A DNA stretch of 64,000 nucleotides from Acutalibacteraceae bacterium (GCA_045652105.1 JAZRTP010000031.1:23011-87010); one strand, 5' to 3'; shown: positions 5,872 to 32,582, counted from the stretch's first letter. Notes: generated by a model from the sequence alone, not told the origin. Translations and numbers: made by a program.

Positions 5872-5887
5872 TAAAAAATTCTCCTGT

Positions 5888-5922
5888 CTCAGTTAAGGCA
5901 GGAGAATTTTTTATCACATATA
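5888..5922 (+). terminator. Rho-independent terminator after gene-fragment copy 3
   Basis: AATTCTCCTG-loop-CAGGAGAATT followed by TTTTT. Confidence 0.8.
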
Positions 5923-6001
5923 CTTTTTGTGACTTTAAAAACACGGGGAATGTACCGATTCGAATTAAGGAATTCGTAAGATGCTTTTTAGTGCTTTTAT
6001 G

Positions 6002-6030
6002 TTGACAGTAGTTTATTTTAAGAGTATAAT
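6002..6030 (+). promoter_or_regulatory. Sigma-A-like promoter (TTGACA-17-TATAAT) for the large surface-protein gene
   Basis: Both hexamers are perfect consensus with a 17-nt spacer. It lies 47 nt upstream of the ATG. Confidence 0.65.
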
Positions 6031-6076
6031 TCTATTTCGGAAAACGTTATCTTTTCATGTTCAGGAGGCATAAAAA

Positions 6077-9000
6077 ATGAAAATGACAACTAAAAAAATT
6101 ATTTCAATGTTTCTTGCAATTGTTATGATTCTGGGTATGGCTCCCGTATCAGTTTTTGCAACGGAAACAAACCCCACTGTTGAAATTATCAGCTTTATGA
6201 GAGGAGGACAGAATGACCTTCGTTCAAGTGAACTCTTAGAGGCTCGTGTTGAGGGTTATGACGGTAATGTCCGTGAGCTTACCTATAAGTGGTCAACCAC
6301 CCTCGGCACATACCTTTATGTTTACAACTCACATAATATGTACCACATCAGAAATACTCCGGGTGAAGTTGAGGTTTACAACAGCAAAAAGCTTCTGCCG
6401 ACTCCCGATATGGTAGGAAGATATTACGCCAATGAATTTGAAGGCACAGGCTTCGCATGGGCAGCGGTTCATAGCAACAGCATCTATGACAAGAGCCAGC
6501 TTGTTGGTACTGTTACTGTTGAGGTTTATGACAAAGACAATAATCTTCTCTGCTCTGATATTCACGAGGGTAAGCTTGTAGACGGAGTGAATACAGGCTT
6601 TCTTAATTACGATCTCAAAGAGGATCTTGATGATGTAGTTATCGGTTTATTTGAAGGTGACAAAAGAAATGTCAAAGACCTTCTCGGCGAAAGTGCTGTT
6701 GTTCATATCGTATGTATCGCAAGTACTGTTATGGCCGGTGCAATCAGAAACGGTGATGAATATATCGATCTTACCAAAGAAGCAGACGGTGACTATTATA
6801 TCACCGCTGACAAAGCCGGAACAAGCACGGGCTCAGATGGTGATGCACTGGTTGATCTGACTGTTCAGAAGACCAGCTGTAAGTTCCACCGCGGTAGTTA
6901 TGAAAGTGCAACAACCACAGTGTTTGTGTTTAAAAAGCCTACCACCTCAACCACAACAACCACTCTCACTCTCGATAATTTAGACGATCGTTGTGATTAC
7001 TTCATTAACGGTGTGCAGGGCACAGAAATAGATGAGAACGGAGACGGAAAAAGAGACAAGGTTGTCTTCGAAAATCTTACACCCAACACAGATTACATGG
7101 TTGAAGTACGTGGTGAATATGAGGTAAGTGACGAAGTTACAAGATATGCATATGCTTTTGTTTACGATACCACAAAGCCCGTTTACAAAGCTACGGTTAA
7201 AACATATCTCGACGGCTCACTTACAGATATCACAGATATCCACGGTGATGATATAACTCTTTATCTCCACGAAAAAGACGGCAAAACAGAAAATGTGGAG
7301 CTTATCAAAAGTGAAACAGGTATATACTCTGCCGCTGTTGAAAACGGTATTTACTATCCCTGGCATGTTGAAGCAGGGAATCATGAGCATATGGCAAGAG
7401 AGTATAAGCTCATTATTGAAAATGCCAACGGTGAACTCAGCCTTCATCACTACAGTGTAAAATATGACACAAACGGCGGTGACTTCAAAGCGGGAGAAGA
7501 GGTTGCAACAGAAGTATATTCAAGTATGGATGACGTTAATGTAACTGAAAATGTTCCCGTCAGAGAAGGATTCATCTTTGCAGGATGGGAATATAACGGT
7601 AAAACATTTGCTCCCGGTACAGAAGTTACTGCTGCTATTTCCGCCCCCATCACACTTAAGGCAAAATGGGAAAAGGCTGTCAATGTAACAATCAATGTAA
7701 CTATTGACCATCAGGCTGACGGTGGCTATGACCACAATGAAGCAAGAGAGGAGCTTACAGTTGAATTCCTTGAAAAGACAGTGGATTCTCCCGCTTTCGT
7801 GGAAACGGGTGACAAGCTTAACTTTTCTGAAGACAGTGTTACCGATGAAAACGGTAATGCAAAGCCTTATGAATATTCATTGGTAGAGGAACATCTCTCC
7901 AAATATACTGCAACAGATTATACCTATACAGGTCTCATTGAAAGCTCAACCTTCGGTGTGGCTGTAAGCAAGTCCGGTTACGATGTAGGTTCAATCGAGA
8001 AGTATCAGGATAAGAGCGGCAATTGGATTATCAATATTCCTCTTACATACAACCCCGACGACTTTGACCTTGAATTCAGTGTAGAAATGGACAAGTCAGT
8101 TCCCACAGATCTCTATCCCGATGCTGTAATTGTAAAGATTGCTTGCTGGGATGCAGAAAAAAACGAATGGAACATTATTTCACAGCAGAGAACAACAGAA
8201 ACCACTGTAAAACCCGGTGTACGTGTTGATATCGACAAAACTACAGGCGAAGGCTACGGCACATATCCTGTATGGAAGCACGATGCAGATGGCAATTCCT
8301 ATGGTTACAGAGCAGTAGTAACAGGCTTTATTTATAATAATTCAACTGTTATCGTACCTACAGAAAAAGATCATACCAAAGAAGACGGTCTTGTTATTGT
8401 AACTTATACTGACGGTAACTACACAGCCACTATGGGCGATATTACCGACGGTAAAAAGTACAGCACATCACTTAACGGTGCATATTATAACGATACAGAA
8501 AATAAACAGCAGGGTACTCTTGACGGTGTAATCACTGTTGAAAAGTATAACGTTACCTTTGATGCTCAGGGAGGTATGGTTAACAGTAAGGATGCCGATG
8601 TTGCTGAAAAACAGTATTTTGTACCCGACTTCGATGCTTATGTGCCCACAATGGAAAACCACAGCTTCCTCGGATGGTATCTTGATGAAAAATGCACCGT
8701 TCCTGCAACAGAGGGCGAGCTTCTCACAGAAGATATAACTCTCTATGCAAAATGGGATAAATTACTTACAGGTACAGTTATTGTTGACGGTTACTATGAC
8801 AGTACTCATGTGGTAGACGATGCCGACCGTGCAACTCACGCTCTTGTTGAGCTTGAAGAAATTACTCCCGACGGTACATATAACGTGGCAGGTCAGACAG
8901 TTGAAATTCAGTGGAATGAAGAAAATCATTTCAGTGAACCCGTTTCCTATGAATTCAAGGGTCTTGATACTGATAAGACATACCGTGTAGATGTTTATCT

Positions 9001-19341: not shown

Positions 19342-20796
19342 TCAGATAGCAACCTCATTGATGTGAGCAATGACTGATCTTGCAAGGTCAACAAGATTTC
19401 TGCCGTAGTAGTCACTGGGAGCGTTGAAGCGGTCAACGCAGATAGCATAGTTGCGTCCGTTATAGCTGTAGCCGATGAGGATGTAACAATGATTATACTT
19501 TTTTTGGTTGTCGGTTTGTGCTGTGCCCGTTTTCCCAATAACATAGCCGTAGTTCTTGCCTTCCTCATCGAAACCGTAGCCTCCGCCGCCTTCCTTGCCG
19601 CCGTCTGTTGCGGTGTTGTGAAGGAGCTTCTTAAGCTTGCTTGCTTCAATGGGACCGAGAGCGTTCTTGGTCAGATACTCTGTTTTGCCTTTATGTACTG
19701 ACTTACCTTCATTTGTGATTTCCTTGATAAGATAGGGCTTTACCATATCTCTGCCTTCACTGATGACGGCTGACATTATTGCGGTCAGATGCAGAGGTGA
19801 GATCTGTGTTTTGCCCTGACCGTAACATGAGCTAGCGAGCTCAAACACAGGGTCTTCACCTTTGAATGAGTAGCCTGAATTAAGGGTTGTAAAGTCAAGC
19901 TCAATACTCTTTCCGATATGGAAGGACTCGAAGAGCTCACTGACTCTTTCGGCTCCAATCAGAAGACCTCTTGTTGCAAAGTAGGTGTTGATACTCTGGT
20001 TGAGAGAGCGCTGAAGATTGACAACTGTTTTTCCGTCGGGCGCTGTTCTGTTGGCTGAGTCAGCGGTAAAGTTATAAATAGGCTTGCCTGCTGGCGTGAT
20101 ATAGGGGTCTTCAAGAACATACTCCTGTTCAATGTCATATCTGATGATACCAAGGGCAATCAGAATCTTGATAACCGAGCCTGCGGTATGACTGCTTGAA
20201 ACGGCTGAATTGAGCATACTGCCGGGGTAGGAGATATAGGTTGAGTAGTTCTCCTTCAGCTTATTGGCGTCAAAGCTGACTTTCTGATGACCGCGTGCAG
20301 CCATACAGAGAATTTCACCTGTGTCACTATCAATTACAGTGATATTGCCGGCAAAGCCCTTGTCCTCAAGAAGACTGTAGGCAAAGGACTGAAGATTGAT
20401 GTCCAGGGTCAGCTGAACATCTGCACCCACGCCGTCAAGGCCCGAATCCATGTCAAAGAGCTCGTGGCTGAGCTTCTTTCTGAGTCCTGAAAGATCTGAG
20501 CCGTTTCTTATGCCGATGATGTTGCTGAGCTCATGGGTGTAAAGAATGGTTGAAGCCTTGCCCGCTGTGTCGTTGCTGCTCGTAAGAGGCACATTGTTGC
20601 GGTCATAGAAGGTGCCTTCAATGTTGTTGTTGAGGTAATAGTCCTTCATCAGTTCATTACGCTTGGCATCAGCCTGGGGGTTGATGTTCGGAATGATACC
20701 TGTCTGATAAACAGTTATGAAGGAAAGGGAAAGCACAAGGACAGTGACGATGGTTGCAATGAGAGAAAGGCGCTTTTTGCTGTTTTCTGTGTTCAT
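19342..20796 (-). CDS. Class B penicillin-binding protein (PBP2/FtsI-type transpeptidase)
   Basis: N-terminal TM anchor LSLIATIVTVLVLSLSFITVY. SxxK (SVIK), SxN (SIN) and KTGT occur in canonical order. The start lies 3 nt after the stop of the SEDS gene. Confidence 0.85.
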   Translation of the reverse strand: MNTENSKKRLSLIATIVTVLVLSLSFITVYQTGIIPNINPQADAKRNELMKDYYLNNNIEGTFYDRNNVPLTSSNDTAGKASTILYTHELSNIIGIRNGSDLSGLRKKLSHELFDMDSGLDGVGADVQLTLDINLQSFAYSLLEDKGFAGNITVIDSDTGEILCMAARGHQKVSFDANKLKENYSTYISYPGSMLNSAVSSSHTAGSVIKILIALGIIRYDIEQEYVLEDPYITPAGKPIYNFTADSANRTAPDGKTVVNLQRSLNQSINTYFATRGLLIGAERVSELFESFHIGKSIELDFTTLNSGYSFKGEDPVFELASSCYGQGKTQISPLHLTAIMSAVISEGRDMVKPYLIKEITNEGKSVHKGKTEYLTKNALGPIEASKLKKLLHNTATDGGKEGGGGYGFDEEGKNYGYVIGKTGTAQTDNQKKYNHCYILIGYSYNGRNYAICVDRFNAPSDYYGRNLVDLARSVIAHINEVAI

Positions 20797-20799
20797 ATT

Positions 20800-22842
20800 T
20801 TAAGCCTCCTTAATTTCGGCTGCGGTGGGTTCTTCCTTGTGAGTCGTCTGAGTTTTCTGAGGGGGGACAACCTCCTTACGCATTGCATAAAGAATGATGA
20901 TTGTCATACAGATGTTAGCGGTAAAGGATGTAATGCCCTGTGACAGAAAGGCTGTTGTCATACCCATTATCGGAAGAATGCCCACACTCATTCCAAGCTG
21001 TATGAGTGATTGTAAAGATATGCAAACACCGAAGCCCATTGATGAAAGGGAGAGAGCCTCGTCCTTTTGTGAATAAGAATTGACCAGAACAAGAAGGAAC
21101 TGAAGGGTATAAATGAAGAGTAAGATCAGCACCATGCCTAAGCCGAGCTGAAGCAGGGCGTAACTGAAAATGGAATCGTTATGCTTGTTGGGAATTTGCT
21201 CAAGAAGATTTTCGTTTGTTTCTGTTCCGAGCCACTTGGTCATTCTCAGAGCATTGACAATCTTTGTTGAATGATACTGACTTCCTGCAAGGTCGAGTCT
21301 TTCGAGAATCTTGTAATAGAGCTTGCTGATCATCAGTGATCCGCTGTTCAGATCTTCGATGTTTTTGAGACAAACGAGAGTGAATTCAAAGGAATAATAT
21401 CCGTTTTCAAGCTTGGTTATATCTGAGAAATGCTCAAGGGAAACGTTTTCGTCAAGGTCAATACCGCTTTTCAGTGCGGCACGAAGAGCATTGGCGGTTG
21501 CTTTTGAATTCTTGTCCTTGCAGACAATTGTGATAAGGTGTCTTGCGTTGAGGATTTTGCCGAGCTCTTCATTGTTTTCCTGCTTTGCCTGAACGATATA
21601 GCGGGAATAGGAGATATACTCCTTTTTGCCCGGGGCAACCTCTGCATCCTCTTCCTTGAGAACGGAGGTATAAGCCTCTGAATTAAGATAATCGGCTGTT
21701 GCACTTTTGTCACCTGAGAGAGCCTTCCAGGCTTCAAGCTCAATGCTCTGCATTGCTGTTGAGGTCTGAACTGAGATGTCGTAATCATTTTCATAGCAGC
21801 TCTTTGCAACTGAAAGACCGATGATGACAGCAACTATACCCCACAAAGCAAGGGTAAGAAACTTTTTGATTTCTTTGGTGCTGATGAAGGTAATGATGAT
21901 GAAAGAGAACAGAAGAATCATGATTGTGCCGAGCTCGAAGGCGAGAGCAAACACTCCTGAAAGAGCAACCAGATAAGCTGTGGCAAGAGTCAGACGCTTC
22001 TTTTCGGAATATTCTCTGAAGGAGTAGATGTTGCCGAAGACGAACACCGCAGCAACCTTCACAAGCTCTGAAATCTGGATGGATGTGTCTCCGATTTTAA
22101 ACCAGTTGGCAGCTCCGTTTGTTCTTTTGCCCATAACAACCAGAGCACCGATTGCAAGCACTGTGCCCACTGCAATAATCAGTGTGAAGAGCTTTCTTTT
22201 GGGTGAACGCAGAATACAGATGATTCCGCCTGCACCCACACAACCGCCGATGACGCCGATGCCCATAGTTATAATGAGCTTTGTCAGACCCGTGTAGGCA
22301 AGCATTGTCTGAAGAAGCACACCCGTTGTGATAAGCACACAGGTCAGGAAAGTATATAAGACAGCGGTTGAGCTGTAAGGGTTAAGGAAGGCGGCAAGAA
22401 ACAGCAGCAGACCGTTCATTGCAAGGATAACGAAGAAGGTCTTCATATATTCACTTGCAGAGCCGTTTTTTGTTGCAATGCCTCCGCAAAGAAGACTGTA
22501 AATGGTAATTGCGCCGATTGAGAGGAGGAATTTGCTTCTGAAGGCTGATGTTCTGAGATCTGGGAGTCTCACGGCAATGTTAGCAGTCTCAGCCTCAAGG
22601 AGTTTTACTGTTGCTTTTTTGATTTTGATGATACCCTTAAAGAGACGGTTGAAGAGCGTTACAACGAAGAAAATGAGCTTTCTGAAGACCTTGCCGATTT
22701 TGCTGACAAGGTCCTTGAGCTTACCGGATGAGACACGGTCTTCAACACAGCAGCCGTTGTCATAGCAGCTGTCATATTCGTTATATTCTACGGTTACGAT
22801 ATCCTTTTCCGCTGCTGCGGGAAGATTCTTTTCCTTTGACAT
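20800..22842 (-). CDS. SEDS-family (FtsW/RodA/SpoVE) peptidoglycan polymerase with a ~95-aa N-terminal extension and an enlarged extracytoplasmic loop
   Basis: GAANWFKIGDTSIQISELVKVAAVFVFG matches the SEDS block (..iQPSE..K). The C-terminal blocks are PNKHNDSIFSY (canonical HTDFIF) and GILPIMGMTTAFLSQG (canonical lP.tG..lPf.SyGG). At 680 aa it is much longer than the usual ~370-420 aa. Confidence 0.85.
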   Translation of the reverse strand: MSKEKNLPAAAEKDIVTVEYNEYDSCYDNGCCVEDRVSSGKLKDLVSKIGKVFRKLIFFVVTLFNRLFKGIIKIKKATVKLLEAETANIAVRLPDLRTSAFRSKFLLSIGAITIYSLLCGGIATKNGSASEYMKTFFVILAMNGLLLFLAAFLNPYSSTAVLYTFLTCVLITTGVLLQTMLAYTGLTKLIITMGIGVIGGCVGAGGIICILRSPKRKLFTLIIAVGTVLAIGALVVMGKRTNGAANWFKIGDTSIQISELVKVAAVFVFGNIYSFREYSEKKRLTLATAYLVALSGVFALAFELGTIMILLFSFIIITFISTKEIKKFLTLALWGIVAVIIGLSVAKSCYENDYDISVQTSTAMQSIELEAWKALSGDKSATADYLNSEAYTSVLKEEDAEVAPGKKEYISYSRYIVQAKQENNEELGKILNARHLITIVCKDKNSKATANALRAALKSGIDLDENVSLEHFSDITKLENGYYSFEFTLVCLKNIEDLNSGSLMISKLYYKILERLDLAGSQYHSTKIVNALRMTKWLGTETNENLLEQIPNKHNDSIFSYALLQLGLGMVLILLFIYTLQFLLVLVNSYSQKDEALSLSSMGFGVCISLQSLIQLGMSVGILPIMGMTTAFLSQGITSFTANICMTIIILYAMRKEVVPPQKTQTTHKEEPTAAEIKEA

Positions 22843-22868
22843 TTCAATATCGTCCTTTCCGTTTGAAT

Positions 22869-23444
22869 TTAATATTTGCGGGGAGCTGAGGGTGGGATGA
22901 AGACCCTTTCTTCTTCAGCTTTTTCGGCCTTTGCTGAAGACTCTTCCCTTGCGGGAGGAGTCTTCACGGGAGCTTTGAGCTTTGACTGAGCCTTTTGTGA
23001 AACGGGTGCCGAAGGCGGTACGAAGGAAGTCTCGACAGTGTTGTTTGCTTCTTCCTGCTCGGGAACGTTGACATTAACGCAGGTATTGTCAGGCTCAGCG
23101 GAAGCTTTCTGCTTACCATTAAGCTTTCTGCGGTTTAAGGCGGGCGGTGTCGGAGGAGTAAAGCTTTTATCGGGGTCCGATATGGGTACCGCCTTGACGG
23201 GCTTGTCTTCCTTGACAGAATTTTCCTTTGTCTCGGGAGACTTATTATGCGGAGTAATCTTCTCGGAAGATTCATTGCCGACGTGGCCGCGTTTCTCTCT
23301 TGCAGGGCGTGACTGCTTTTCGGTCTTTTGAGGATTGTCCTGAAGATCGAAGATTTTATAGAAGATTTTATAGATAGTCCAGCTTATGATGCCAACACCT
23401 GCGATGGCGGAAAGGAAGAATATCTGAGTCCAGAAGCTTGCCAT
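22869..23444 (-). CDS. Single-pass membrane protein with a Pro/Lys/Glu-rich cytoplasmic tail carrying three F-x-P-P-(S/T)-(A/P)-P motifs
   Basis: N-terminal TM segment WTQIFFLSAIAGVGIISWTIY. The rest is low complexity and includes SFTPPTPPA, SFVPPSAPV and VFIPPSAPR. It sits in an operon with the SEDS gene. Confidence 0.6.
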   Translation of the reverse strand: MASFWTQIFFLSAIAGVGIISWTIYKIFYKIFDLQDNPQKTEKQSRPAREKRGHVGNESSEKITPHNKSPETKENSVKEDKPVKAVPISDPDKSFTPPTPPALNRRKLNGKQKASAEPDNTCVNVNVPEQEEANNTVETSFVPPSAPVSQKAQSKLKAPVKTPPAREESSAKAEKAEEERVFIPPSAPRKY

Positions 23445-23487
23445 TGAATAATCATCTCCTTTTGATGTTTTCCGTCAACACAAGAAA

Positions 23488-24354
23488 TCAGAACTTGTTT
23501 ACGTTGTCATCCTTTTTGAATCTGATGGTATTATTTGATCTGACGAAGGCGGCCTTGCCGGGAGTGAAGACCTTTGCGTCAGGAGTGAAGACCTTTGTGC
23601 CGGAAGTGTTTTCAATCACGGGAGGCTCAAAGGCTTCCTCTGATGAGAAATCATCTTCGATGGAATCGAAAATAAAGGGGTCAATATCGGGATTCTGAGG
23701 CTCAACAAATCTGAACCACTGTCTGCCGAGGCAGAAAAGGGTTCCGTCGAAAAGCTCCATTGTTGAGTAATCCTTGGGGAATTCCTTTGCTTTGCCTTCA
23801 TTGAAGTCATAGTAGAAGATGGGATTGATTGTTCTGTCTCCGTCCTTCAGACGGTCAGGGAGTCTGACGATATCCTTTCTGTAAGAAAGAGCAGGAGCAC
23901 CTGAAGGTGAGGTATAGATATAGTATGCATTTGAAGAAAATGCTCTTGTGTAGGGTGATTCTTCAACTGTAATCTGGTTGTAAAGTCTTTTGACTCCCTT
24001 ACGGTTAATGTTGATGCAAATCGGATCATCTGAGTAATCAATGTTGTAAGAATGAAGCACATTGCCGTTGCTTGAATCAAGCTGCTGAATAATGCCTCTG
24101 CCAAACAGCTCAGTTTTGCCGGAGCTTGATGATTCGTTTTCTTTAAGGCCGTTGATGATTTTTTTGAGTTCGGGGAAGGACTCCTTGTGTCTGGGCTGAG
24201 GAGCCGTCTCGGGTAAGCAGTCTGAGATGTCGTTGTCGTCTTTATTTTTCTTTGAGGGAAGAAAACTGAGGAGCTTGTCCTTGTTCTGCTTGACGATGAG
24301 ACCTGCAATGATAAGTACAAGTGCGATGATGATGAAAATTGAAAGTTTGTCCAT
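23488..24354 (-). CDS. Single-pass membrane protein with a cytoplasmic globular domain (weakly FHA-like end motif)
   Basis: The TM segment LSIFIIIALVLIIAGLIV is followed by a Lys-rich stretch, which predicts a cytoplasmic C-terminus. ELFDGTLFCLGRQWFRFVEP resembles the terminal L.DGD.i.lG...f.F strand of FHA domains, but the upstream GR/SxxH motifs are not clear. RBS is AAGGAG. Confidence 0.6.
   Translation of the reverse strand: MDKLSIFIIIALVLIIAGLIVKQNKDKLLSFLPSKKNKDDNDISDCLPETAPQPRHKESFPELKKIINGLKENESSSSGKTELFGRGIIQQLDSSNGNVLHSYNIDYSDDPICININRKGVKRLYNQITVEESPYTRAFSSNAYYIYTSPSGAPALSYRKDIVRLPDRLKDGDRTINPIFYYDFNEGKAKEFPKDYSTMELFDGTLFCLGRQWFRFVEPQNPDIDPFIFDSIEDDFSSEEAFEPPVIENTSGTKVFTPDAKVFTPGKAAFVRSNNTIRFKKDDNVNKF
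23561..23597 (-). repeat. 21-nt in-frame tandem duplication (GGAGTGAAGACCTTTG x2 on the plus strand) encoding (A/T)KVFTP x2
   Basis: Copies at 23561..23576 and 23582..23597 are identical. The protein reads GTKVFTPDAKVFTPGKAAF. Confidence 0.85.
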
Positions 24355-24418
24355 GGTTATTTCTCCTTTGAAATAAAAAAATTTTTTTCGGACTTATGTT
24401 TCGTCCGATTTCGCTGCT

Positions 24419-24447
24419 ATGATAACACAGAAAAAATACTTCGTCAA
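24419..24447 (-). promoter_or_regulatory. Sigma-A-like promoter (TTGACG-17-TATCAT, with a TG extension) for the membrane-protein/SEDS/PBP operon
   Basis: Read on the minus strand. The leader contains the hairpin TCGGACGAAACATAAGTCCGA. Confidence 0.5.
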
Positions 24448-24592
24448 TGCAAAAATTCATAGTAAGTTCATTTTTCCGTCATAAATAGTGAAACTGAAAA
24501 AACAAGAAAAAAGCGATGTCAGAGCTGTAAAAAAAGCCCTTTAAAAAACCGCCAAAAATAGAGAAATCCTTAATATCACTGGAAAAAAGGAC

Positions 24593-24621
24593 TTGAAAAA
24601 CAGCTTGAAAGCATTTATAAT
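24593..24621 (+). promoter_or_regulatory. Sigma-A-like promoter (TTGAAA-17-TATAAT) for the six-gene signalling operon
   Basis: Hexamers and the 17-nt spacer counted directly. It lies 72 nt upstream of the ATG at 24693 and about 145 bp from the divergent promoter. Confidence 0.6.
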
Positions 24622-24692
24622 ACCTATATAGATTTGTAAGAAATCACCTTTTGATTTTTGAACAAATTATTAACAAAAAAGGAGAGACTGAT

Positions 24693-25979
24693 ATGAAGGA
24701 AAAAAAGGTAAAGGACAAGGCAGCGGAACCCAGAACAAATTTTAATGTTGCTGTGAGAAAAAAGGACACCTATGATCTGCTTACAGACATCATTGATATT
24801 TCTGTGATCAAGGATACTGATGTTGAAAAGTTTGCTGAAGGACTTGCGACGGTAAGAAATGATGTAGGCACCGCATGGGAAAATTTTTTCCCCGGATTCA
24901 GAGAGCAGTTTAAAGATATGCGTCCCCGTATTAAAAATAAGGATATTGAAGAGGGACTCGGTGTTGAAGAAAGTACAGTCACAAGATTCAAGCACTCCGT
25001 TCCTGCCAAGCGCAGCCAGCTTATCGGTCTTTGCATTATGTACAAGCAGGATTTAGCCAACACAAGAGAAATTATCACCAGATTTGAATACCGTGATTTC
25101 AGTACCACTGATCTGGATGATTGCATTTATACATATATTCTGAGCAACAACACAGAGCATCGTACTCCGAAGGCAACCTTTGAAAGAATAAAAAATATTC
25201 TTGACTTTAAGATTGCCGAGGCTGAAAGCGCTCAGCAGCTTATTGAAAAGGATGAGTATATTTTGCCGGATGGCAAGATTGTCTACAGAAACAGAGCTCT
25301 TACGCTGTCAGCAAATAAGATGGCAGATTTTGAAAAGGAGCTTACTGAGTCTCTGACCGGCTTTGACAGCTTCTGTGATTTCGTTGTCAGAAACAGAGCT
25401 TATCTCGGAAAAGAAGATGACAGAATTATCAGAAGAATTAAAAAGATGGTTTCAAAGGCTGAAAATCCCGACACCGAAGCTTCTCAGAGCTTTGCAAATT
25501 CTCTTTTCAAAAACAAGAGCTTCCGCGAAAAGTTTTACAGAGTAATCGAAGGCCGAGTTCCCATTACCCGTGACTTTCTTATTCTTCTTTGCCTTCATCT
25601 TAAAAAAGGCAGAGCAGATATTGACGAAATGCTTACAAAGGCTGGCTACAGCATTCTTTTCCGCAAGGATCTTCTTGACTTGATGCTTATTTATATCTGT
25701 GAATGGCTTTATGTAAAAGCTCCTGCTGTTTTCACCAACGATCTTACCGAATATATGGAAACTGTTCTGACGGAGCCTGAAACCCCCGAGGAGACGTTGA
25801 AAAGAGAAATGGAAGCAAAAATTCTCTTTGATGAAGTTATGAATAAGGGCTATACAAATTATCTTGATAAAAAAATGGGTGAGATTCTTTCGATGGAGTC
25901 TGTTGTGGATGCTTACGGAAACAATGATGTTATGAAAGGAATCGAAGCCTTCAGAAGTCTTCTTGTAACGGAGGATTAA
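24693..25979 (+). CDS. 428-aa cytosolic protein with two Xre-like helix-turn-helix segments (operon gene 1)
   Basis: I prefer the ATG at 24693 (AAGGAGAG RBS). The HTH-like stretches are KDIEEGLGVEESTVTRFKHSVPAKRSQLIGLCIMYKQDL and GRVPITRDFLILLCLHLKKGRADIDEMLTKAGY. There is no TM segment. Confidence 0.55.
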   Translation: MKEKKVKDKAAEPRTNFNVAVRKKDTYDLLTDIIDISVIKDTDVEKFAEGLATVRNDVGTAWENFFPGFREQFKDMRPRIKNKDIEEGLGVEESTVTRFKHSVPAKRSQLIGLCIMYKQDLANTREIITRFEYRDFSTTDLDDCIYTYILSNNTEHRTPKATFERIKNILDFKIAEAESAQQLIEKDEYILPDGKIVYRNRALTLSANKMADFEKELTESLTGFDSFCDFVVRNRAYLGKEDDRIIRRIKKMVSKAENPDTEASQSFANSLFKNKSFREKFYRVIEGRVPITRDFLILLCLHLKKGRADIDEMLTKAGYSILFRKDLLDLMLIYICEWLYVKAPAVFTNDLTEYMETVLTEPETPEETLKREMEAKILFDEVMNKGYTNYLDKKMGEILSMESVVDAYGNNDVMKGIEAFRSLLVTED

Positions 25980-25980
25980 T

Positions 25981-27525
25981 ATGCTTTCAATTTACAGCTC
26001 TTTGCTTAACCGCATCTATGCACACGGCGGAAAAATGAAGACTCACGTTGTTCTTCATTCCAGCTGTGTGCTGGACGGAGAAATGGATAAACTGTTTTCA
26101 GACAGTCTCATATCAAATTTTTATACATTTTATATGTTTGAAGACAGCCGATATGAAGCCCTTCTTCTCAGAAAAAGCAAAATCGGCAGTATTTCACGGA
26201 ATGCTCATCTGCTTACAGCCAACACAGAAGTGTTTGAGGGCATCAACCTTCGTGACTGCTACGGAAAAAAAAGAACAGTCTATAAAATTATTGATATGTT
26301 CAGTCCCTCTGCTGAGAACCGTACTGTTTTTGCATTCTGCGATCCCTCGGCGGCAGAAGAGTTCGTCACAAATGTTGTGCCCGGTGTAAGAGAAAAGTTT
26401 GAGGCGGTTAATAATAATATTGATTATTCGGGTTATGAGCATCTGAGTATTCTGTGCTTCAATTACTTTGGCGGTGCTCTTGACATCGGCAGCTCTTATA
26501 CCTCACCGCTTAAGCTGAAATATTTTTCGGCAGGTAACTTTGATCTCTGGCATATGAGAGAAAAGCCGCAGATTATCAATACTGTTGATACAAACGGCTT
26601 CAGCACAGAAATGTCACAGTTTTTTTATATAAACGGTAACAAGATTGCCTGTGTCAGCAGAAAGAGTCTTAAGCGCATTTATCAGGGCAGCTTTGCCGAA
26701 ATTTATGAAATAGACGGTGTTGATGAGTTGAAGGGAAAGCTTATCAAGATTCTTAAAAATCCTCCTTCAGATGAAAACTTTGCAAGATATATATCGGGAC
26801 TTTCAAGATTCAGAAGAATCTTTGGTGACCGCATTGCTTTTCCCGAGGCTGCGGTTTATGATGAAAAAAGCAGATTCTGCGGCTTTATGATGAGTAAGGC
26901 TGACTGTTTTCAGTTGAATGATCTGCCCGATTATGTCGGTTTTCGTGACTTTGACTCGGACCGTATTGAAAGCCATCTGCTTGAATGCGGCCGCTACGCT
27001 TCAGAGATAGCTTTGCTTTTGCTTGAAATGAGGCTCTTCGGTCTTTCAATGACAGATATTTCCGGCAGAAATATCTGCTTCAGAAAAAAGGATAACAGTG
27101 TATTTTTGGTTGATGCAGACAGCATTGAGTTTCAGGGCTTTATTTTCGGAGAGTGGTTCTGCACTCCCGGATATTCATGTGAAAACATTTCCCGCTGCGG
27201 CAAAAGGGAATATTATTTCCTTGCTAATTTTATGGAATTTTCACTGTCGGTGCTTCTTTTCCGTCTTTATTTCCGTTCAAATCCCCTTGTGAACAACGGA
27301 GCTGATTTTGATACAGATTATGAGGACTGGAAGCAGGCTTTACAGTCTCCCTTTAAAATCAACAAAATCTCCTCAGACAGTGCCTATCTTGCCCGTCTTC
27401 CTGAAAAAGTCTGGTGTAAAAGCTTCAGCGATGAGCAAAGAAGGGCATTCATCAAGTCCTTTAATGATGAAAAGATTTATACCATAGGTCAGTGGATAAA
27501 AATATTGGATTTAATTTCGGAGTAA
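25981..27525 (+). CDS. 514-aa protein: unknown N-terminal domain + divergent protein-kinase-like C-terminal domain (operon gene 2)
   Basis: The start is 1 nt after the previous stop. Motifs occur in kinase order: QGSFAEIYEI, KLIKILK, MTDISGRNICF (D-x4-N), FLVDADSIEF, TPGYSCEN. Confidence 0.5.
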   Translation: MLSIYSSLLNRIYAHGGKMKTHVVLHSSCVLDGEMDKLFSDSLISNFYTFYMFEDSRYEALLLRKSKIGSISRNAHLLTANTEVFEGINLRDCYGKKRTVYKIIDMFSPSAENRTVFAFCDPSAAEEFVTNVVPGVREKFEAVNNNIDYSGYEHLSILCFNYFGGALDIGSSYTSPLKLKYFSAGNFDLWHMREKPQIINTVDTNGFSTEMSQFFYINGNKIACVSRKSLKRIYQGSFAEIYEIDGVDELKGKLIKILKNPPSDENFARYISGLSRFRRIFGDRIAFPEAAVYDEKSRFCGFMMSKADCFQLNDLPDYVGFRDFDSDRIESHLLECGRYASEIALLLLEMRLFGLSMTDISGRNICFRKKDNSVFLVDADSIEFQGFIFGEWFCTPGYSCENISRCGKREYYFLANFMEFSLSVLLFRLYFRSNPLVNNGADFDTDYEDWKQALQSPFKINKISSDSAYLARLPEKVWCKSFSDEQRRAFIKSFNDEKIYTIGQWIKILDLISE

Positions 27526-27528
27526 AAT

Positions 27529-28164
27529 ATGAAAAGAGATATATTTATTGTTGTTGACAAAACGGCAGTTCCGAAGGAAACAGATTCTTACAGACTCAGA
27601 AAAAACTTCGAGGATATAATCAGAGCTATACCTCACGGCTTCAGCTTTCTGAATACGGAGGTGGACTATTCAGTCAGTCTTCTGAGCTTTTCTGATAAGT
27701 TTTCACCTGATGTGAATATTCATGACAGATTTCTGTCTGTTTCAAATGAGCCGGATATTGCAGCCGTTGCCAATGCGGAAAAAGCTGATATGCTCGTGCC
27801 CTGGGGACCGATAAGAGCCTGCATTGATATGGGTCTTTCAGAATACCGCAGATGCCTGTTGAAGAAAATCAGCATCAAGCCGCCCGTTATCATTTTAATC
27901 AGCGGCGGAGATTTCTGTAAAAGCTCCCGTACAGAATATTTTTCTGAAAGATGGGGCAGTCTCACTGATGAGCTGAGGTTTTACGAAAAAACGGGTATGC
28001 TCGAAATCAAGGCTGTTGCAATTTCATCAAAAGATGGTTTCTTTAACGACAAATATATTTCAGCCTTATCTCTAAAGGCTGAAAATGTTATTTCCGTTAA
28101 TCTTGATTCAGACCGAAAGGTTATAATTGAAACAATGAAAAGAATATACAGACAGGAGATATGA
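27529..28164 (+). CDS. 211-aa vWA-like protein with a degenerate MIDAS (operon gene 3)
   Basis: The beta1 position reads IFIVVDKTAVP (DKTAV in place of DxSxS). The later position reads PPVIILISGGDF where L(T/S)DG is expected. Its size and beta-alpha periodicity parallel the next gene. Confidence 0.45.
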   Translation: MKRDIFIVVDKTAVPKETDSYRLRKNFEDIIRAIPHGFSFLNTEVDYSVSLLSFSDKFSPDVNIHDRFLSVSNEPDIAAVANAEKADMLVPWGPIRACIDMGLSEYRRCLLKKISIKPPVIILISGGDFCKSSRTEYFSERWGSLTDELRFYEKTGMLEIKAVAISSKDGFFNDKYISALSLKAENVISVNLDSDRKVIIETMKRIYRQEI

Positions 28165-28168
28165 AAAA

Positions 28169-28927
28169 ATGAGATATATGGATCTTATTGTTGTGGCTGA
28201 CCGATCAACATCCCTTGATCAGCATATTGTTAAAGTCAATACTATTCTCAGCTATATCAGAAATTTAATCAAATTCAATCCTCTTTTTGCCGGTGTATAT
28301 CTTTCTGTTTTGCAGTTCCCTGTCAGGCCCGGTGAGGATCCCTTTTACATCAAGGGTCTGTTTGCCGGAAATGACCAGTCAGACGGCCCAATCAAACTGA
28401 CCGCCTGGGGTAACACAAATCCCGCAGCTGTACTTAACAAGGCGGCAGAATATGCCCTGGAGCGTTACGATGCTCTTAAGAGTGATGAAAATTTAAGAGG
28501 TGCGGAAATTGCCCACCCTCTGATTATTTTCTTAAACGACGGAAGACTCAGCGCCGGAACCGACACCGAAGGCGGTACCGTTGACCCTGAAGAGCAGCTG
28601 ATTGTTGAAAAAGCATATGATTTGGTCTGTGAAAAAATCAGACGCCTTGAAGCACAGAGAAAGTTTCAGGTAAGAGCCTTCGGTATGGGAAGCGCTGATA
28701 TAGCCTCTTTGAAAAAACTCACAGGCAAAGAGGAATATACCTATGACTTTACAGATGGCAGCTTAGAAAATTATGACCTTACCAATATGCTCGCTCAGTT
28801 GTGTGCCAAGGTCTTTGAGGCAACCAGCAAATATATCGGAGCAGGTGATATGGCCGCAAAACAGGTTGTTGAGCTGACCCCCGAGCTGAGAGAGACCATC
28901 GGCGGCATTCTGGCTAACTTAATTTAA
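28169..28927 (+). CDS. 252-aa vWA (TerY-like) protein with an intact MIDAS (operon gene 4)
   Basis: LIVVADRSTSLD gives DxSxS at 28199..28213. GNTNPAA supplies the MIDAS Thr region and LIIFLNDGRLS the Asp position. Confidence 0.65.
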   Translation: MRYMDLIVVADRSTSLDQHIVKVNTILSYIRNLIKFNPLFAGVYLSVLQFPVRPGEDPFYIKGLFAGNDQSDGPIKLTAWGNTNPAAVLNKAAEYALERYDALKSDENLRGAEIAHPLIIFLNDGRLSAGTDTEGGTVDPEEQLIVEKAYDLVCEKIRRLEAQRKFQVRAFGMGSADIASLKKLTGKEEYTYDFTDGSLENYDLTNMLAQLCAKVFEATSKYIGAGDMAAKQVVELTPELRETIGGILANLI

Positions 28928-28942
28928 GCAGAGGTTGATAGT

Positions 28943-30742
28943 ATGCGAATACTTAATTTTTTAGGACAAGGACGTTATCATACGGAAAAAGAAATTCCTT
29001 GTCAGGACAGCCTTCTTTACCGTCAGACAAAAAACGGCAGATGGGTGTTTGCAGTTTCCGACGGCTGCAGCTCAAGTAAATTTTCTCACTTCGGTTCAAA
29101 AGCTGTTGTGAAGGCTGTTGCAGATTTCTTTGAAAATTACGAAGGAGAGCTTTCGGACAGTAATCTTAAGCAGGAGCTTCTTGATTATATGGTTGAAAGA
29201 CTTAAAGCGAAGGGCAGACAGCTGAGGACTTATGACCTGAGCGACCTTTATGCAACAGTTGTTTTTCTCGTTTCGGAAAAAGGTAAATTTCTTGCGGGAC
29301 ACATTGGTGATGGTGCATTGGTATGCTTCGGTGAAGCGGAAAGACTGTTCATTTCCGACCCTGAAAATGCGGGAGCTGCAAACGTAACCTATTTTGTGGG
29401 CAGTGAGTCCGCCGGAAATCATTTTCACCTTTCCCTTATTGATGCCGAGGGTGAAAATCAGCTGAGAAACCTTATTCTCTTTTCCGACGGTCCGCAAAAA
29501 ATGTTTGCGGAAAAGGGAAGAGGTGATATTACAAAGGGTGTCACTGAAATCATTTCAAAGGTCAGGGCGGAAGAAATTAATTCCTACAAGTCTCTGAAGG
29601 AATATCTTTTCGGTCAGGCTGTCACATCAATTTATGACATTGACGACGACTGGTCGCTGATTGTTGTTGATACTGAGCTTGACGAAGCAGAAAAAGAAGC
29701 TGATTTCAAGGCTGATCATATGACCTTGTCCTTTTATGAAAAATATCTTGAGCAGAATCCCGACGCGGCAGCTTATGTTATTCCGAAAATCAATAAATTC
29801 AGGGCAGAGCTGAATCTGGAGCCTCTTGCCGCACCCAAAAATAAGGAGTTGTCCTTTGAGGCTCTTTTTGAAAAGCTTCAATCAGAGTATGACTCTGCGG
29901 GTAAGAAAAATTCCCTTGAATCAAAGGATGTATCCTTTGAAAATGTAAATGCACCTCAGAAATATGTGCCCTCTGAAAAAGGGAAGACATCCGTTAAGGC
30001 TGATGAGGCTCAGCATAAGGAAACTGAAATTTCCGGTCAGGACATAGAAGATGATGTCTTTGAAAAATTATGGAAGCAGGCTTGGAGTGTTCAGACGGCT
30101 GTTGAAGAAGCGGGACATTTTGAACCTGTCACGTCGGAGAAAGAGGATGAGAAGACGGATGATGAAATCAGCGGCTTTTTGGAGGATTTTATTCAGGCTC
30201 TGAACACAGCTTCCGAAATGAAGCCGTCTCAGTCTGTCAGTCCGGCAGAAGCTGAAGAGCCTTGCGGGAAGTCGGAAACGGAAAATGTCTCCTTTGAAGA
30301 AAGACTCGAAAAAATCCGTGCAAATGCTCATGTAGCTGAGGCAGAGGATTCTGAAATAAAGACAGCTCAGTCTCAGGTGAAGCCGAAAACTGAAAAACAG
30401 TCAGTACCCGATGAAAAACAGAGTGTCGGGGCTGATGCTCCCTCACAAGAGGCTGAAGCCAAGGTTAAAGCTGCTGATGTGAAAAGACAGGGATTTGAAA
30501 AAATTTCCGTTGCGCCGGAAAGTATAGCAAACTTTCTTGCTCCCGACGAAAGCAATAATTATGACAGTGATGCCTTTTTCGGTCAGCGGGAGAATGAGAA
30601 AAAGGCGGGGAGATTAAAAAGCTTCTTTAAAGAACGTTTCAGAAGAGTTACCTCTGAAATTTATGATGAGGATGAAGACGAAGAAGAGGACGAGGATTTT
30701 TACGAAATCTTTGACGATGATTTTGAAGAACAGGAGGAATGA
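28943..30742 (+). CDS. PP2C-family (PP2C_2-like) Ser/Thr phosphatase fused to a ~350-aa acidic low-complexity tail (operon gene 5)
   Basis: Phosphatase motifs EIPCQDS, FAVSDGCSSS, GHIGDGALV and LILFSDGP are present. The tail is rich in E/D/K/S and ends DEDEDEEEDEDFYEIFDDDFEEQEE. Confidence 0.75.
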   Translation: MRILNFLGQGRYHTEKEIPCQDSLLYRQTKNGRWVFAVSDGCSSSKFSHFGSKAVVKAVADFFENYEGELSDSNLKQELLDYMVERLKAKGRQLRTYDLSDLYATVVFLVSEKGKFLAGHIGDGALVCFGEAERLFISDPENAGAANVTYFVGSESAGNHFHLSLIDAEGENQLRNLILFSDGPQKMFAEKGRGDITKGVTEIISKVRAEEINSYKSLKEYLFGQAVTSIYDIDDDWSLIVVDTELDEAEKEADFKADHMTLSFYEKYLEQNPDAAAYVIPKINKFRAELNLEPLAAPKNKELSFEALFEKLQSEYDSAGKKNSLESKDVSFENVNAPQKYVPSEKGKTSVKADEAQHKETEISGQDIEDDVFEKLWKQAWSVQTAVEEAGHFEPVTSEKEDEKTDDEISGFLEDFIQALNTASEMKPSQSVSPAEAEEPCGKSETENVSFEERLEKIRANAHVAEAEDSEIKTAQSQVKPKTEKQSVPDEKQSVGADAPSQEAEAKVKAADVKRQGFEKISVAPESIANFLAPDESNNYDSDAFFGQRENEKKAGRLKSFFKERFRRVTSEIYDEDEDEEEDEDFYEIFDDDFEEQEE

Positions 30743-30745
30743 TAA

Positions 30746-32542
30746 ATGGATTTAAGTACAAAAAAAAGCGGAAGTGTTATTGTAACTAAGGATGAGATAA
30801 AGGATATTTTCAACAATCATTATATGCAATTCAAAAAGAAAACCGGAGGTGATCACTCCTGGAGAGTTGATAAAAGAACCGATTTCGGCGGCGGTTTTTC
30901 TGATATTTACAAAATTAAAAACAGTGTGGGAGAGAAAGGCATCCTCAAGGTTCTTTCGGCAAAAAGAACTGTAAACAACGGTGAAAATATAGAGGCGTCA
31001 AAAATCTTTTCGATTGCTTATAATGAAATTTTCACAATGAGGCTTTTCACCTTGCTTGAAGATGAATCCGAAGCAAACGCCAGTACTCTCAACGGTTATT
31101 ATGAATACCGCACAACCTATAAAAAGGAAGACGGAACAGAAGCAGATGATTGGATTTTCTTTATCATTATGCCTGAATATGAAACCCTCGGAAATTGCCG
31201 TTTAAGCAGTGAAAAGGATATTTATGATATTGCTTTATCCATTCTTAAAACCCTCAGAGTTCTTAACGAGCGAGTTAATTACATTGACCTTTATGACTGC
31301 TTCAAAAGAGAAGGGATACTTTCCTTTAATCCGGATTTTTTAAGTGAAAAAGATCTGGAAAATTATAAAAATTTCCGCAGAGTGCTTCATAATGATATAA
31401 AGCCCGATAATATTCTCAAAAAGATTATGGGTAATGATTATGTTACTGTTCTTGCCGATTTCGGTGCAGTGTGCTTTATGGACGATGACGGCAAGGCAAT
31501 TGTCCGCTATGGCTCCAAGCCGTACTTTGATCCTCAGCTTATAAGGAATCGAGGCGTAATAAAAAACGGTGCCACTAACAGTGATATATATTCTCTTGGA
31601 ATCACTCTTCTGAGCCTTTTCTATATTATCGGAAATCTGCCCTTTACAAAAATTTCAAGATATACAAGTAAATTTGCAGATTATGGAGATAAGTTTAAAG
31701 AAGAGGCAGAAAAGGATAAAAACAGTCTGAATCCCGACGTTCTTCAGAAGCCTGAATTTATTTCAGATTTATTCTGGAAGATCATTATGAAAATGATCAG
31801 CAAATTTGAATGGGACAGATTTTCTGATGTCAATCAGGCAATCTCAGCTCTTACAGACCGTGTGGTTGTTTCGAGAATTTCAGAAGAGAACTTTCCTCCT
31901 GAGATTATCGCAAAGACATCTCTCTGGAATCTTCTTCACGAAAACAAAATTTCAGAGTTAAACAAAGTTATTGTTGACGAATACGAAAGACAGAAAGAAG
32001 AAGAAACTGAAAATTATCTTTTTACTGTTCTTTTTGCCTTTGTTTATGCATGTGGTATAAAAGAAGACGACAATGCAGAAGCTAATATTAAAAATGTCAA
32101 GTCTCTTCTTGATCCTTATATGGACGATGGACGCGACGGTGCCTGGTTTGTATATGATATAATTGTTATGCTTGCCAAAAAAAAGGGAATTTTTTCCGGA
32201 AATTCGGAGACTGTCATTGATGCAAGAAAAAATCTCAAGCATCTGTGTAACGTTGGCTTCCTTCCTGCTGTGTATTTTTATATGTCACTGACCGTTCAGG
32301 GCGAACCGGAATATGACGAGAGCTCGGAATATATCCTTAAAAAGCTTGACAATCTGCTCGAATATCCTTACATACCCGGTGTCAGACTTTACCGTGATGT
32401 ACTTAAACGCAATCCTTGTCTTCTGAACCTTGATGATGAAACCAAGGAAAAAAAGCTTGATATAATCAGAATGGAGTTCAAGGATGACATTTCCGATTAT
32501 CTTGCAATTGTCAAATATCTCCTCGAGAACGACAGCAAATAA
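30746..32542 (+). CDS. Soluble Hanks-type Ser/Thr protein kinase with a ~230-aa alpha-helical-repeat C-terminal domain (operon gene 6)
   Basis: Kinase motifs: GGGFSDIYKI (Gly loop), ILKVLS (Lys), HNDIKPDNIL, LADFGAV, SKPYFDPQ, SDIYSLGITLLSL. There is no TM or PASTA domain. Confidence 0.85.
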   Translation: MDLSTKKSGSVIVTKDEIKDIFNNHYMQFKKKTGGDHSWRVDKRTDFGGGFSDIYKIKNSVGEKGILKVLSAKRTVNNGENIEASKIFSIAYNEIFTMRLFTLLEDESEANASTLNGYYEYRTTYKKEDGTEADDWIFFIIMPEYETLGNCRLSSEKDIYDIALSILKTLRVLNERVNYIDLYDCFKREGILSFNPDFLSEKDLENYKNFRRVLHNDIKPDNILKKIMGNDYVTVLADFGAVCFMDDDGKAIVRYGSKPYFDPQLIRNRGVIKNGATNSDIYSLGITLLSLFYIIGNLPFTKISRYTSKFADYGDKFKEEAEKDKNSLNPDVLQKPEFISDLFWKIIMKMISKFEWDRFSDVNQAISALTDRVVVSRISEENFPPEIIAKTSLWNLLHENKISELNKVIVDEYERQKEEETENYLFTVLFAFVYACGIKEDDNAEANIKNVKSLLDPYMDDGRDGAWFVYDIIVMLAKKKGIFSGNSETVIDARKNLKHLCNVGFLPAVYFYMSLTVQGEPEYDESSEYILKKLDNLLEYPYIPGVRLYRDVLKRNPCLLNLDDETKEKKLDIIRMEFKDDISDYLAIVKYLLENDSK

Positions 32543-32546
32543 AAAT

Positions 32547-32582
32547 AAAAACAGATGTAACCGTTAGTTACATCTGTTTTTT
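32547..32582. terminator. Bidirectional rho-independent terminator between the kinase operon and the rluA-family gene
   Basis: AAAACAGATGTAAC-CGTT-AGTTACATCTGTTTT, with A and T runs on either side. Confidence 0.85.

Follow-up and report, generated by a model that had tools for sequence, protein, structure and literature searches.

We examined a 64,000-nt stretch of the chromosome of an Acutalibacteraceae bacterium, a gut member of the Clostridia (GCA_045652105.1 JAZRTP010000031.1:23011-87010; hereafter the window), and found a cluster of six tightly packed plus-strand genes at 24651/24693-25979, 25981-27525, 27529-28164, 28169-28927, 28943-30742 and 30746-32542, separated by gaps of 1, 3, 4, 15 and 3 nt. 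Gene 1 most likely starts at ATG 24693, behind AAAGGAGAG. A promoter-like site at 24593-24621 on the plus strand (TTGAAA-17-TATAAT, 11 of 12 matches) lies upstream of gene 1 and is the best in the region, although the total count of promoter-like sites there equals the chance expectation (18 against 18.2). Among loci fetched from other genomes (designated L001 to L018), this site is kept in the closest relative, L001, but is not conserved in position in L002 and L003. A hairpin at 32547-32581 (15-16 pairs, T-runs on both strands) is the strongest terminator-like site and reads on both strands, between gene 6 and a convergent pseudouridine synthase gene. None of the six proteins has a transmembrane segment, the highest 19-residue Kyte-Doolittle mean being below 1.6 in each. 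The observation made in an earlier note, namely six closely spaced genes between one promoter and one terminator, therefore holds.

Upstream, a 338-nt divergent intergenic region (24355-24692) is shared with a minus-strand operon at 19342-24354. That operon encodes a 288-aa single-pass membrane protein (unk288, 23488-24354), a 191-aa membrane protein with a low-complexity tail (unk191, 22869-23444), a 680-aa SEDS (FtsW/RodA family) protein with a large insert (20800-22842) and a class B penicillin-binding protein (bPBP, 19342-20796). The intergenic region holds two copies of C(A/C)(A/T)AAATAG(T/A)GAAA, at 24480-24493 and 24553-24566, and TCATAAA(A/T)AGTGAAA is kept in the window, L001 and L003. 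We regard this motif as a candidate operator with weak support; the pattern was derived from these very copies, so its count is not independent.

Gene 1 (24693-25979) encodes a 428-aa protein with a duplicated Xre-type HTH-like unit at about residues 80-150 and 265-336. The internal duplication was recovered by hhalign (prob 93.5%, E 2.4e-7), but the HTH assignment, which the earlier note had read directly from the sequence, is only partly confirmed. The window protein itself has no Pfam, NCBIfam or PDB hit, and support comes from sub- or near-threshold hits of family members, which match HTH_60 at 9.8e-5 (just under the cut-off) and HTH_3 at 0.074 in the first unit. Homologues of gene 1 are present in L017 (5e-32), L011 (2e-10) and L006 (7e-8).

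Gene 2 was described in the earlier note as an atypical kinase-like protein with catalytic motifs in a very divergent background. We confirmed both the kinase fold and the motifs, and further found that the protein consists of two parts. The C-terminal part (26581-27525, residues about 230-514) is a Ser/Thr kinase domain homologous to E. coli YegI: aligning the family profile against YegI with hhalign gave a probability of 97.7% and an E value of 1.3e-12 over 254 columns. Foldseek top hits are protein kinases, and an exhaustive HMM search reaches canonical Pkinase proteins. K256, D359, N364, D378 and S381 are invariant across 11 relatives and D380 is conserved in at least 90%; these residues map onto those shown to be needed for YegI activity, with the DADS of gene 2 aligning with the DSDS loop that YegI carries in place of DFG (bioRxiv 10.1101/819920). 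The N-terminal part (25981-26580, residues 1 to about 200) is a predicted PIN-like domain, of three-layer alpha/beta/alpha fold, that the earlier note did not see. Its AlphaFold2 model (pLDDT 86, pTM 0.84) retrieved PIN domains as top Foldseek hits (3ix7 at 1.9e-3 with prob 0.98, then 1o4w, Nmd4, SMG6 and Utp24), and Pfam PIN_4 matched 2 of 20 family N-domains at 4e-4. Support for the fold is nonetheless moderate (TM about 0.3-0.48), and the four acidic residues of a canonical PIN active site are not all present. The site residues are H26 in place of the first catalytic Asp, E59, D121 and N161; across 20 members, position 1 is His in 17 and Asp in 1, E59 is invariant, position 121 is D or E in 14, and position 161 is N or D in 16. 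Nuclease activity is therefore doubtful.

Genes 3 and 4 encode small von Willebrand A (vWA)-like proteins that are related to each other (hhalign prob 95%, E 2.2e-8). Gene 4 (28169-28927) has a sub-threshold Pfam VWA match over the whole domain (0.025) and a PDB match to 3rag (0.025), but its profile matches E. coli YegL (hhalign prob 92.9%, E 3.8e-7), making it a YegL/TerY-like protein. Its MIDAS residues D11, S13, T83 and D124 are invariant; the motif reads DRSTS in the window, although the third Ser (S15) is Asn in two orthologues. Gene 3 (27529-28164) has a degenerate MIDAS (DKTAV, no GxT) but keeps D128, and its direct match to YegL is not significant. The positional equivalent in L018 hits Pfam VWA at 1.7e-4. 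The earlier note had counted a MIDAS-dead vWA paralogue among the additions to the triad, but we found the degenerate state to be peculiar to this clade and L017; the positional equivalents in L015 and L018 keep DxSxS.

Gene 5 (28943-30742) encodes a PphC-like PP2C phosphatase (residues 1-245; Pfam PP2C_2 at 1.3e-34; BLASTP against PphC at 3e-6) whose metal-binding Asp residues are invariant. It is followed by a 349-aa, poorly conserved acidic tail (pI 4.45, 25% D+E) ending in a D/E run. Gene 6 (30746-32542) encodes a complete Hanks-type Ser/Thr kinase (residues about 45-370; Pfam Pkinase at 2e-13). Its Gly-rich loop (GGGFS), VAIK Lys (K68), alphaC Glu (E94), HRD-type loop (HNDIKPDN), DFG, subdomain IX Asp (D280) and subdomain XI Arg (R358) are invariant in four orthologues, but the protein does not match YegI. 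Its C-terminal tail of about 225 aa may contain Sel1-like repeats, since relatives' kinases carry Sel1 hits, but the tail comparison is weak and the helical-repeat nature proposed in the earlier note is only weakly supported.

We next asked whether these genes travel together. The earlier note had set out conditions under which its reading would fail, and the reading withstood the sequence-based ones. Homologues of genes 1-3 do sit next to vWA/PP2C/kinase genes in other genomes: the whole six-gene block is in L001, L002 and L003, the five-gene core in L015 and L018, and the four-gene core in L005 and L009 and, as far as their contigs reach, in L006, L011 and L012. No search placed genes 1-3 in a housekeeping family. 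The PIN-YegI-kinase family comprises about 90 clusters among 1.84 billion representatives and has no Pfam, NCBIfam or PADLOC model. Every fetched locus with enough flanking DNA shows vWA and then PP2C after the PIN-kinase gene, followed by a Hanks kinase wherever the contig reaches, and gene-1-like proteins recur. Order and spacing are kept down to 26% identity.

In this Acutalibacteraceae clade, the six genes and the divergent SEDS/bPBP operon form a ten-gene block that is 40–75% identical between genomes whose flanks are 92–99% identical. Comparing the window with L001, all ten genes are under purifying selection (dN/dS 0.15-0.41; 0.2-0.3 in the six genes) but have a dS of 0.34-1.1 against 0.2-0.39 in the flanks, with nine of the ten at 0.56 or more and the PBP intermediate at 0.34. 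The boundaries are sharp, and the pattern fits a cassette with its own history. The divergent arrangement is conserved in four genomes plus L017, where an unk288 homologue lies divergent from the gene-1/gene-2 pair, and in L011 a bPBP lies directly upstream of the gene-2-like gene. In contrast, L005, L006, L009 and L018 show no PBP or SEDS gene in the DNA available, so the cell-wall link is not universal. Whereas the earlier note described vWA/PP2C/kinase neighbourhoods as mobile, we saw no sign of mobility here: the site is the same in three genomes, there is no nearby tRNA or integrase, and no plasmid, phage or viral-contig relatives were found.

Together, these results support the earlier note's interpretation of an expanded vWA/PP2C/kinase triad related to E. 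coli yegI/yegK/yegL, a link that held when tested directly for genes 2, 5 and 4, but they reassign its members. Gene 2 is not a spare kinase-like protein but the triad's own kinase, beside the YegL-like gene 4 and the PphC-like gene 5, and the Hanks kinase, gene 6, is the added one. The note's view that the role of such triads is essentially unknown is also dated, as TerY-P-like modules were reported as stand-alone antiphage systems (Gao et al. 2020, as cited in PMC11090510). We favour, with a probability of roughly 0.6, a cytosolic Ser/Thr phospho-signalling module of the YegI/PphC/YegL (TerY-P-like) class in an enlarged form. What our analysis establishes is the family composition, subject to the moderate support for the PIN-like fold and the weak HTH hits of gene 1, and the recurrence of PIN-kinase, vWA, PP2C and Hanks kinase as a unit across Clostridia. 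How the module works, including the write, erase and read-out logic proposed in the earlier note, is inferred from sequence and structure prediction alone, and substrates and phosphorylation order are pure inference. In this view, the Hanks kinase, through its repeat tail, and the PP2C would set the phosphorylation state of the YegI-type kinase and/or the vWA proteins; YegI needs autophosphorylation in its DSDS loop, and gene 2 keeps the same D-x-D-S. The vWA proteins would act as metal-dependent adaptors, possibly docking the acidic tail of the PP2C, and the PIN-like domain would be the output or nucleic-acid-contacting part, a role that zinc-ribbon or OB-fold domains fused to the C terminus of other TerY-P kinases are predicted to play. 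Gene 1 would couple the state of the switch to transcription, probably at the shared divergent promoter region, although it could instead carry a protein-binding HTH, as in RodZ. We surmise that the module is a stress- or infection-type switch which, in this lineage, is functionally tied to the neighbouring accessory SEDS/bPBP cell-wall synthase operon, with which it is inherited and diverges as one cassette.

Two narrower readings remain possible, though we hold each only tentatively. The locus could be an antiphage or abortive-infection system in which the triad senses infection and releases the PIN-like domain as an RNase effector, gated by phosphorylation or dimerization of the kinase domain as in Ire1 and RNase L, with the SEDS/bPBP genes as mere passengers in a variable locus. 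TerY-P-like modules are reported as antiphage and TerY-P triads accompany predicted RNA-targeting nucleases (PMC11090510). The predicted PIN fold and the deeply divergent alleles with raised dS at a conserved site are consistent with this, as are relatives with an Xre-HTH plus SprT-like metallopeptidase pair (L012) or an SprT-like gene (L006) directly upstream, and L006 carries two paralogous systems side by side. However, the first catalytic Asp is His in nearly all members, other defence genes, integrases and tRNAs are absent nearby, the site is fixed in three genomes, no plasmid, phage or viral-contig copies were found, and no TerY-P family appeared among the PADLOC hits for any of the six proteins at E up to 1 (for gene 6, among the best 25 of 28 hit families). 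Slightly more likely, but still doubtful, is a dedicated regulator of the adjacent peptidoglycan synthase, in which two kinases and a PP2C would control the SEDS/bPBP pair and its two membrane partners, in analogy to the actinobacterial fhaA-fhaB-pstP-rodA-pbpA-pknA-pknB cluster, while gene 1 sets transcription of the divergent operon. The conserved divergent arrangement, the co-divergence of the ten genes and the bPBP in L011 point this way, and the membrane proteins have cytoplasmic tails with repeated S/T-P motifs that are possible substrates. Yet several relatives lack PBP or SEDS neighbours in the DNA available, no FHA domain was detected in either membrane protein, none of the six proteins has a PASTA or other extracellular sensor or a transmembrane segment, and a PIN-like domain has no obvious role in wall synthesis.

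A chance cluster of unrelated genes or a decaying remnant could be entertained because genes 1-3 have no database family and evolution is fast, but this is very unlikely, being contradicted by the low dN/dS, the conserved order and spacing, and the invariant catalytic residues. A bolder possibility, which we consider unlikely but cannot exclude, is that the PIN-YegI-kinase fusion is a phosphorylation-gated nuclease or RNA-binding effector controlled by a vWA/PP2C/Hanks-kinase switch, a bacterial counterpart in logic to Ire1 and RNase L. In Acutalibacteraceae it would form, with the accessory SEDS/bPBP synthase, one hypervariable cassette linking envelope state or phage attack to RNA-level shutdown.

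The vWA/PP2C/kinase triad is widespread, but its output is still unknown, and the study of YegI states that its substrates and stimulus are open questions (bioRxiv 10.1101/819920). The locus described here offers concrete candidates for the missing parts: a predicted nuclease-fold domain fused to the triad kinase, an HTH-type partner, a second kinase and a genetically coupled peptidoglycan synthase operon. It also defines a protein family, PIN-like plus YegI-type kinase, without an existing model. The far deeper divergence of the ten-gene block than of its flanks makes it a useful natural experiment on co-evolving signalling and cell-wall proteins in uncultured gut Clostridia.

Compared with E. 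coli YegI/PphC (YegK)/YegL, all three families are present, detectably homologous and tightly linked. However, gene 2 is soluble, lacks part of YegI, has the N-terminal PIN-like domain and keeps the catalytic-loop Asn that YegI lacks; three extra genes are present (the HTH-type gene 1, the second vWA and the Hanks kinase with its repeat tail), and the PP2C carries its long acidic tail. The TerY-P triad (Anantharaman et al. 2012) and the TerY-P-like antiphage modules (Gao et al. 2020), as described in PMC11090510, likewise place a TerY-like vWA, a PP2C and a Ser/Thr kinase in one operon, with the kinase fused to a domain predicted to contact nucleic acid. Here the fused domain is N-terminal and PIN-like rather than a C-terminal zinc ribbon or OB fold, there is no tellurite-resistance or restriction context, no TerY-P model matches among the PADLOC hits described above, the locus is not visibly mobile, and a second kinase and a second vWA are present. 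The actinobacterial fhaA-fhaB-pstP-rodA-pbpA-pknA-pknB cluster similarly unites two Ser/Thr kinases, one PP2C, a SEDS protein and a class B PBP in one conserved neighbourhood with two small accessory proteins. We detected no FHA domain in either membrane protein: five unk288 orthologues had no FHA hit in Pfam, a PDB profile search gave none, and hhalign against approximate GarA/OdhI/FhaB sequences gave E 0.7. Our locus further lacks PASTA domains, has soluble kinases and vWA, PIN-like and HTH-type proteins, is arranged as two divergent operons rather than one, and evolves fast instead of being highly conserved. Finally, Ire1 and RNase L fuse a kinase or pseudokinase to an RNase, much as gene 2 joins a kinase-fold domain to a predicted nuclease-fold domain, but this is an analogy in possible logic only, as the nuclease fold differs (PIN-like versus KEN), the domain order is opposite, the PIN-like site is non-canonical and there is no homology beyond the kinase fold.

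Detailed inspection of the locus bore out the observation made in the earlier note: the six plus-strand ORFs are real and are spaced exactly as it had reported, with gaps of 1, 3, 4, 15 and 3 nt. Gene 1 most likely begins at ATG 24693, behind a strong ribosome-binding site, and not at the upstream TTG. A promoter-like site at 24593-24621 matches 11 of 12 consensus positions and is the best in the region, although the total number of such sites equals the chance expectation. This site is kept in the nearest relative. At the other end of the operon, the hairpin at 32547-32581 is the strongest terminator-like site and serves both convergent genes. A further terminator-like hairpin (10 pairs) at 28058-28084 lies inside the 3' end of gene 3, but since it reads on both strands and has a poor T-run, it is probably due to chance. 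None of the six proteins has a hydrophobic stretch of transmembrane strength.

We next assigned the six proteins to families. Gene 5 is a PP2C_2 phosphatase (Pfam, 1e-34) with a 349-residue acidic, poorly conserved tail. Gene 6 is a complete Hanks kinase (Pkinase, 2e-13) in which all signature residues are invariant. The C-terminal tail of gene 6 is about 225 residues long, and its Sel1-like repeat nature is supported only by weak collinear matches, though kinases in related loci carry Sel1 hits. In contrast, genes 1 to 3 have no hit in Pfam, NCBIfam or PADLOC, and PDB sequence searches with profiles of these three genes and of the gene 2 N-terminal domain returned nothing useful. Gene 4 is a vWA protein; its Pfam VWA match is sub-threshold but spans the whole domain, and its profile matches E. 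coli YegL (prob 92.9%, E 3.8e-7). Gene 3 is a paralogue of gene 4 (E 2.2e-8), whereas its direct match to YegL is not significant. The MIDAS of gene 3 is degenerate in this clade and in L017, a short contig carrying distant homologues, but is intact in the positional equivalents of two more distant loci, L015 and L018.

The key result concerns gene 2, which the earlier note had read as an additional kinase-like protein. An exhaustive profile search of 1.84 billion representatives found only 94 relatives, comprising five further full-length ones, a family of 455-490-residue proteins that share both halves, and then ordinary protein kinases. A model of the whole protein was of low confidence (pLDDT 54) and was used only for the fold class, yet it still retrieved only protein kinases. 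The family profile aligns with the kinase domain of E. coli YegI over 254 columns (prob 97.7%, E 1.3e-12). Within this alignment, K256, D359 and D378-A-D380-S381 correspond to YegI K39, D141 and D159-S-D161-S162. YegI is an active, Mn2+-preferring kinase whose 'DSD' loop and Ser162 are required for activity (bioRxiv 10.1101/819920). We also considered gene 6 as the YegI-type kinase and rejected this assignment, as gene 6 shows no such relation to YegI. A direct profile link of gene 2 to gene 6 is weak (E 0.032, prob 1.6%), although the motifs align in order. Gene 5 resembles PphC. The YegI/PphC/YegL trio is therefore present as genes 2, 5 and 4, and genes 1, 3 and 6 are the additions.

Modelling the N-terminal 200 residues of gene 2 with a 13-sequence alignment gave a confident prediction (pLDDT 86). 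The best PDB matches of this model are PIN domains, namely 3ix7, AF0591, Nmd4, SMG6 and Utp24, with a best E of 1.9e-3 and prob 0.98. In addition, two of 20 family N-domains hit Pfam PIN_4 at up to 4e-4. The motifs read like a PIN domain (LHTSxVL, YEL, FVFxD/EP..AxEF, L.FN/D), but the first catalytic Asp is His in 17 of 20 members and Asp in one. The fold assignment is thus moderately supported, while nuclease activity is doubtful. Gene 1, for its part, contains an internal duplication in which residues 100-150 align with residues 286-336 (E 2.4e-7). The first copy follows a sequence that looks like an Xre-type helix-turn-helix, and homologues in other loci give near-threshold HTH hits at the aligned place. 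The double HTH described in the earlier note is plausible but not established.

To determine whether the genes travel together, we searched for the operon in other genomes. Sensitive word-based searches of 5.8 billion proteins found gene 1 and gene 2 in only three or four contigs, every one of which carries the same six-gene block; the contig of the nearest relative is from an Acutalibacteraceae MAG. Metagenome scans first gave nothing and then one short locus. More distant relatives of gene 2, at 26-35% identity, keep gene 2, two small vWA proteins, PP2C and a kinase (L015 and L018), and L017 keeps the gene 1 and gene 2 pair. In the wider family, the gene-2-like gene is followed by vWA and PP2C_2, and by a Pkinase gene wherever the contig extends that far. 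This is the case in the loci L005 and L009, while L006 has a truncated ORF with a weak gene-6 match, and L011 and L012 end before this position. Gene-1-like proteins occur in some loci. The interpretation of the operon as an expanded vWA/PP2C/kinase triad is supported, having passed the tests that had been set in advance to refute it.

Some of these distant loci have additional features. On L006, a second, paralogous cluster at 1503-8435 (minus strand) lies back to back with the first and comprises a gene-1-like 366-aa protein, a 613-aa protein with a gene-2-like kinase half, a vWA, a PP2C_2 and a Hanks kinase with Sel1. Directly upstream of the PP2C / PIN-kinase / vWA genes lies either an Xre-type HTH (HTH_3, 5e-7) plus SprT-like metallopeptidase pair (L012, 380-1170) or the peptidase alone (L006, 8718-9146). 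This arrangement resembles repressor-protease pairs that regulate mobile elements and defence systems.

Within the window, the operon shares a 338-nt divergent region with a minus-strand operon encoding two membrane proteins of unknown family, a SEDS (FtsW/RodA family) protein and a class B PBP (bPBP). Phylogenetic footprinting of the shared intergenic region yielded only one short common motif, which is not independent evidence. The SEDS protein (20800-22842, minus strand) is 680 residues long and has an N-terminal extension of about 95 residues and a soluble insert of about 190 residues that splits the Pfam match, both of which are unusual for the family. Of the two membrane proteins (22869-23444 and 23488-24354, both minus strand), the 191-aa one has three copies of F[TVI]PP[ST][AP]P in a low-complexity tail, which are also present in the syntenic genome L001, whereas the orthologue in the syntenic genome L003 has three copies of KK(K)RI[DT][VA]SA instead. 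The 288-aa protein (unk288) has two KVFTP repeats near its C-terminus. These may be docking or phosphorylation motifs. Elsewhere in the window, a ZMP/ZTP riboswitch (Rfam RF01750, 61.9 bits) at 61707-61796 (minus strand) lies upstream of a minus-strand gene run and is the only Rfam match in the window.

Together, the two operons form a ten-gene block (19342-32542) that is far more divergent between syntenic genomes than its flanks. Flanking housekeeping proteins are 92-99% identical between the window and the two syntenic genomes (a pseudouridine synthase is 85-97%), whereas the ten genes are 59-90% identical to L001 and roughly 25-57% to L003. Synonymous divergence is raised as well, at 0.56-1.1 for nine of the ten genes and 0.34 for the PBP, against 0.2-0.39 in the flanks. 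With dN/dS of 0.15-0.41, the block is functional but has a deeper history than its surroundings. Its boundaries fall near the ECF-transporter/PBP junction and at the gene 6 terminator, suggesting an anciently diverged cassette kept at one chromosomal site. A look-up of the flanking pseudouridine synthase, aimed at the presence or absence of the block in close strains, returned no record. We found no sign of mobility: searches revealed no relatives on plasmids, phages or viral contigs, and the window has no tRNA. The link to cell-wall genes recurs in two other contexts, with an unk288 homologue in L017 and a bPBP directly upstream in L011, but is absent from several others within the DNA available.

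We take the module to be a YegI/PphC/YegL-class phospho-switch, enlarged by a second kinase, a second vWA protein and an HTH-type partner, with the PIN-like domain on the triad kinase as the likely output or nucleic-acid contact. We put the probability of this general mechanism at about 0.6. What our analysis shows directly is the presence of the trio with its additional genes and the recurrence of its core as a unit; the switching mechanism, the output through the PIN-like domain, the predicted kinase and phosphatase activities and any biological role are inferred from sequence and models. The evidence does not decide between a role in infection or stress sensing and control of the neighbouring peptidoglycan synthase. 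Both remain possible; we hold each of these specific readings only tentatively, the latter slightly more firmly than the former.

As far as the libraries and our literature search show, the PIN-like fusion, the constant pairing with a second Hanks kinase, the gene-1 family and the coupling to a SEDS/bPBP operon in a hyper-divergent cassette are not described. In contrast, the three core families and their association are known. FHA domains would have tied the module to the actinobacterial cell-wall cluster, but we rejected their presence in the two neighbouring membrane proteins: Pfam found none in five orthologues, a PDB profile search gave nothing, and hhalign against three FHA proteins gave E 0.7. 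The predicted PIN-like fusion, as the likely output or nucleic-acid contact of the triad kinase, parallels the zinc-ribbon and OB-fold fusions of other TerY-P kinases (PMC11090510).
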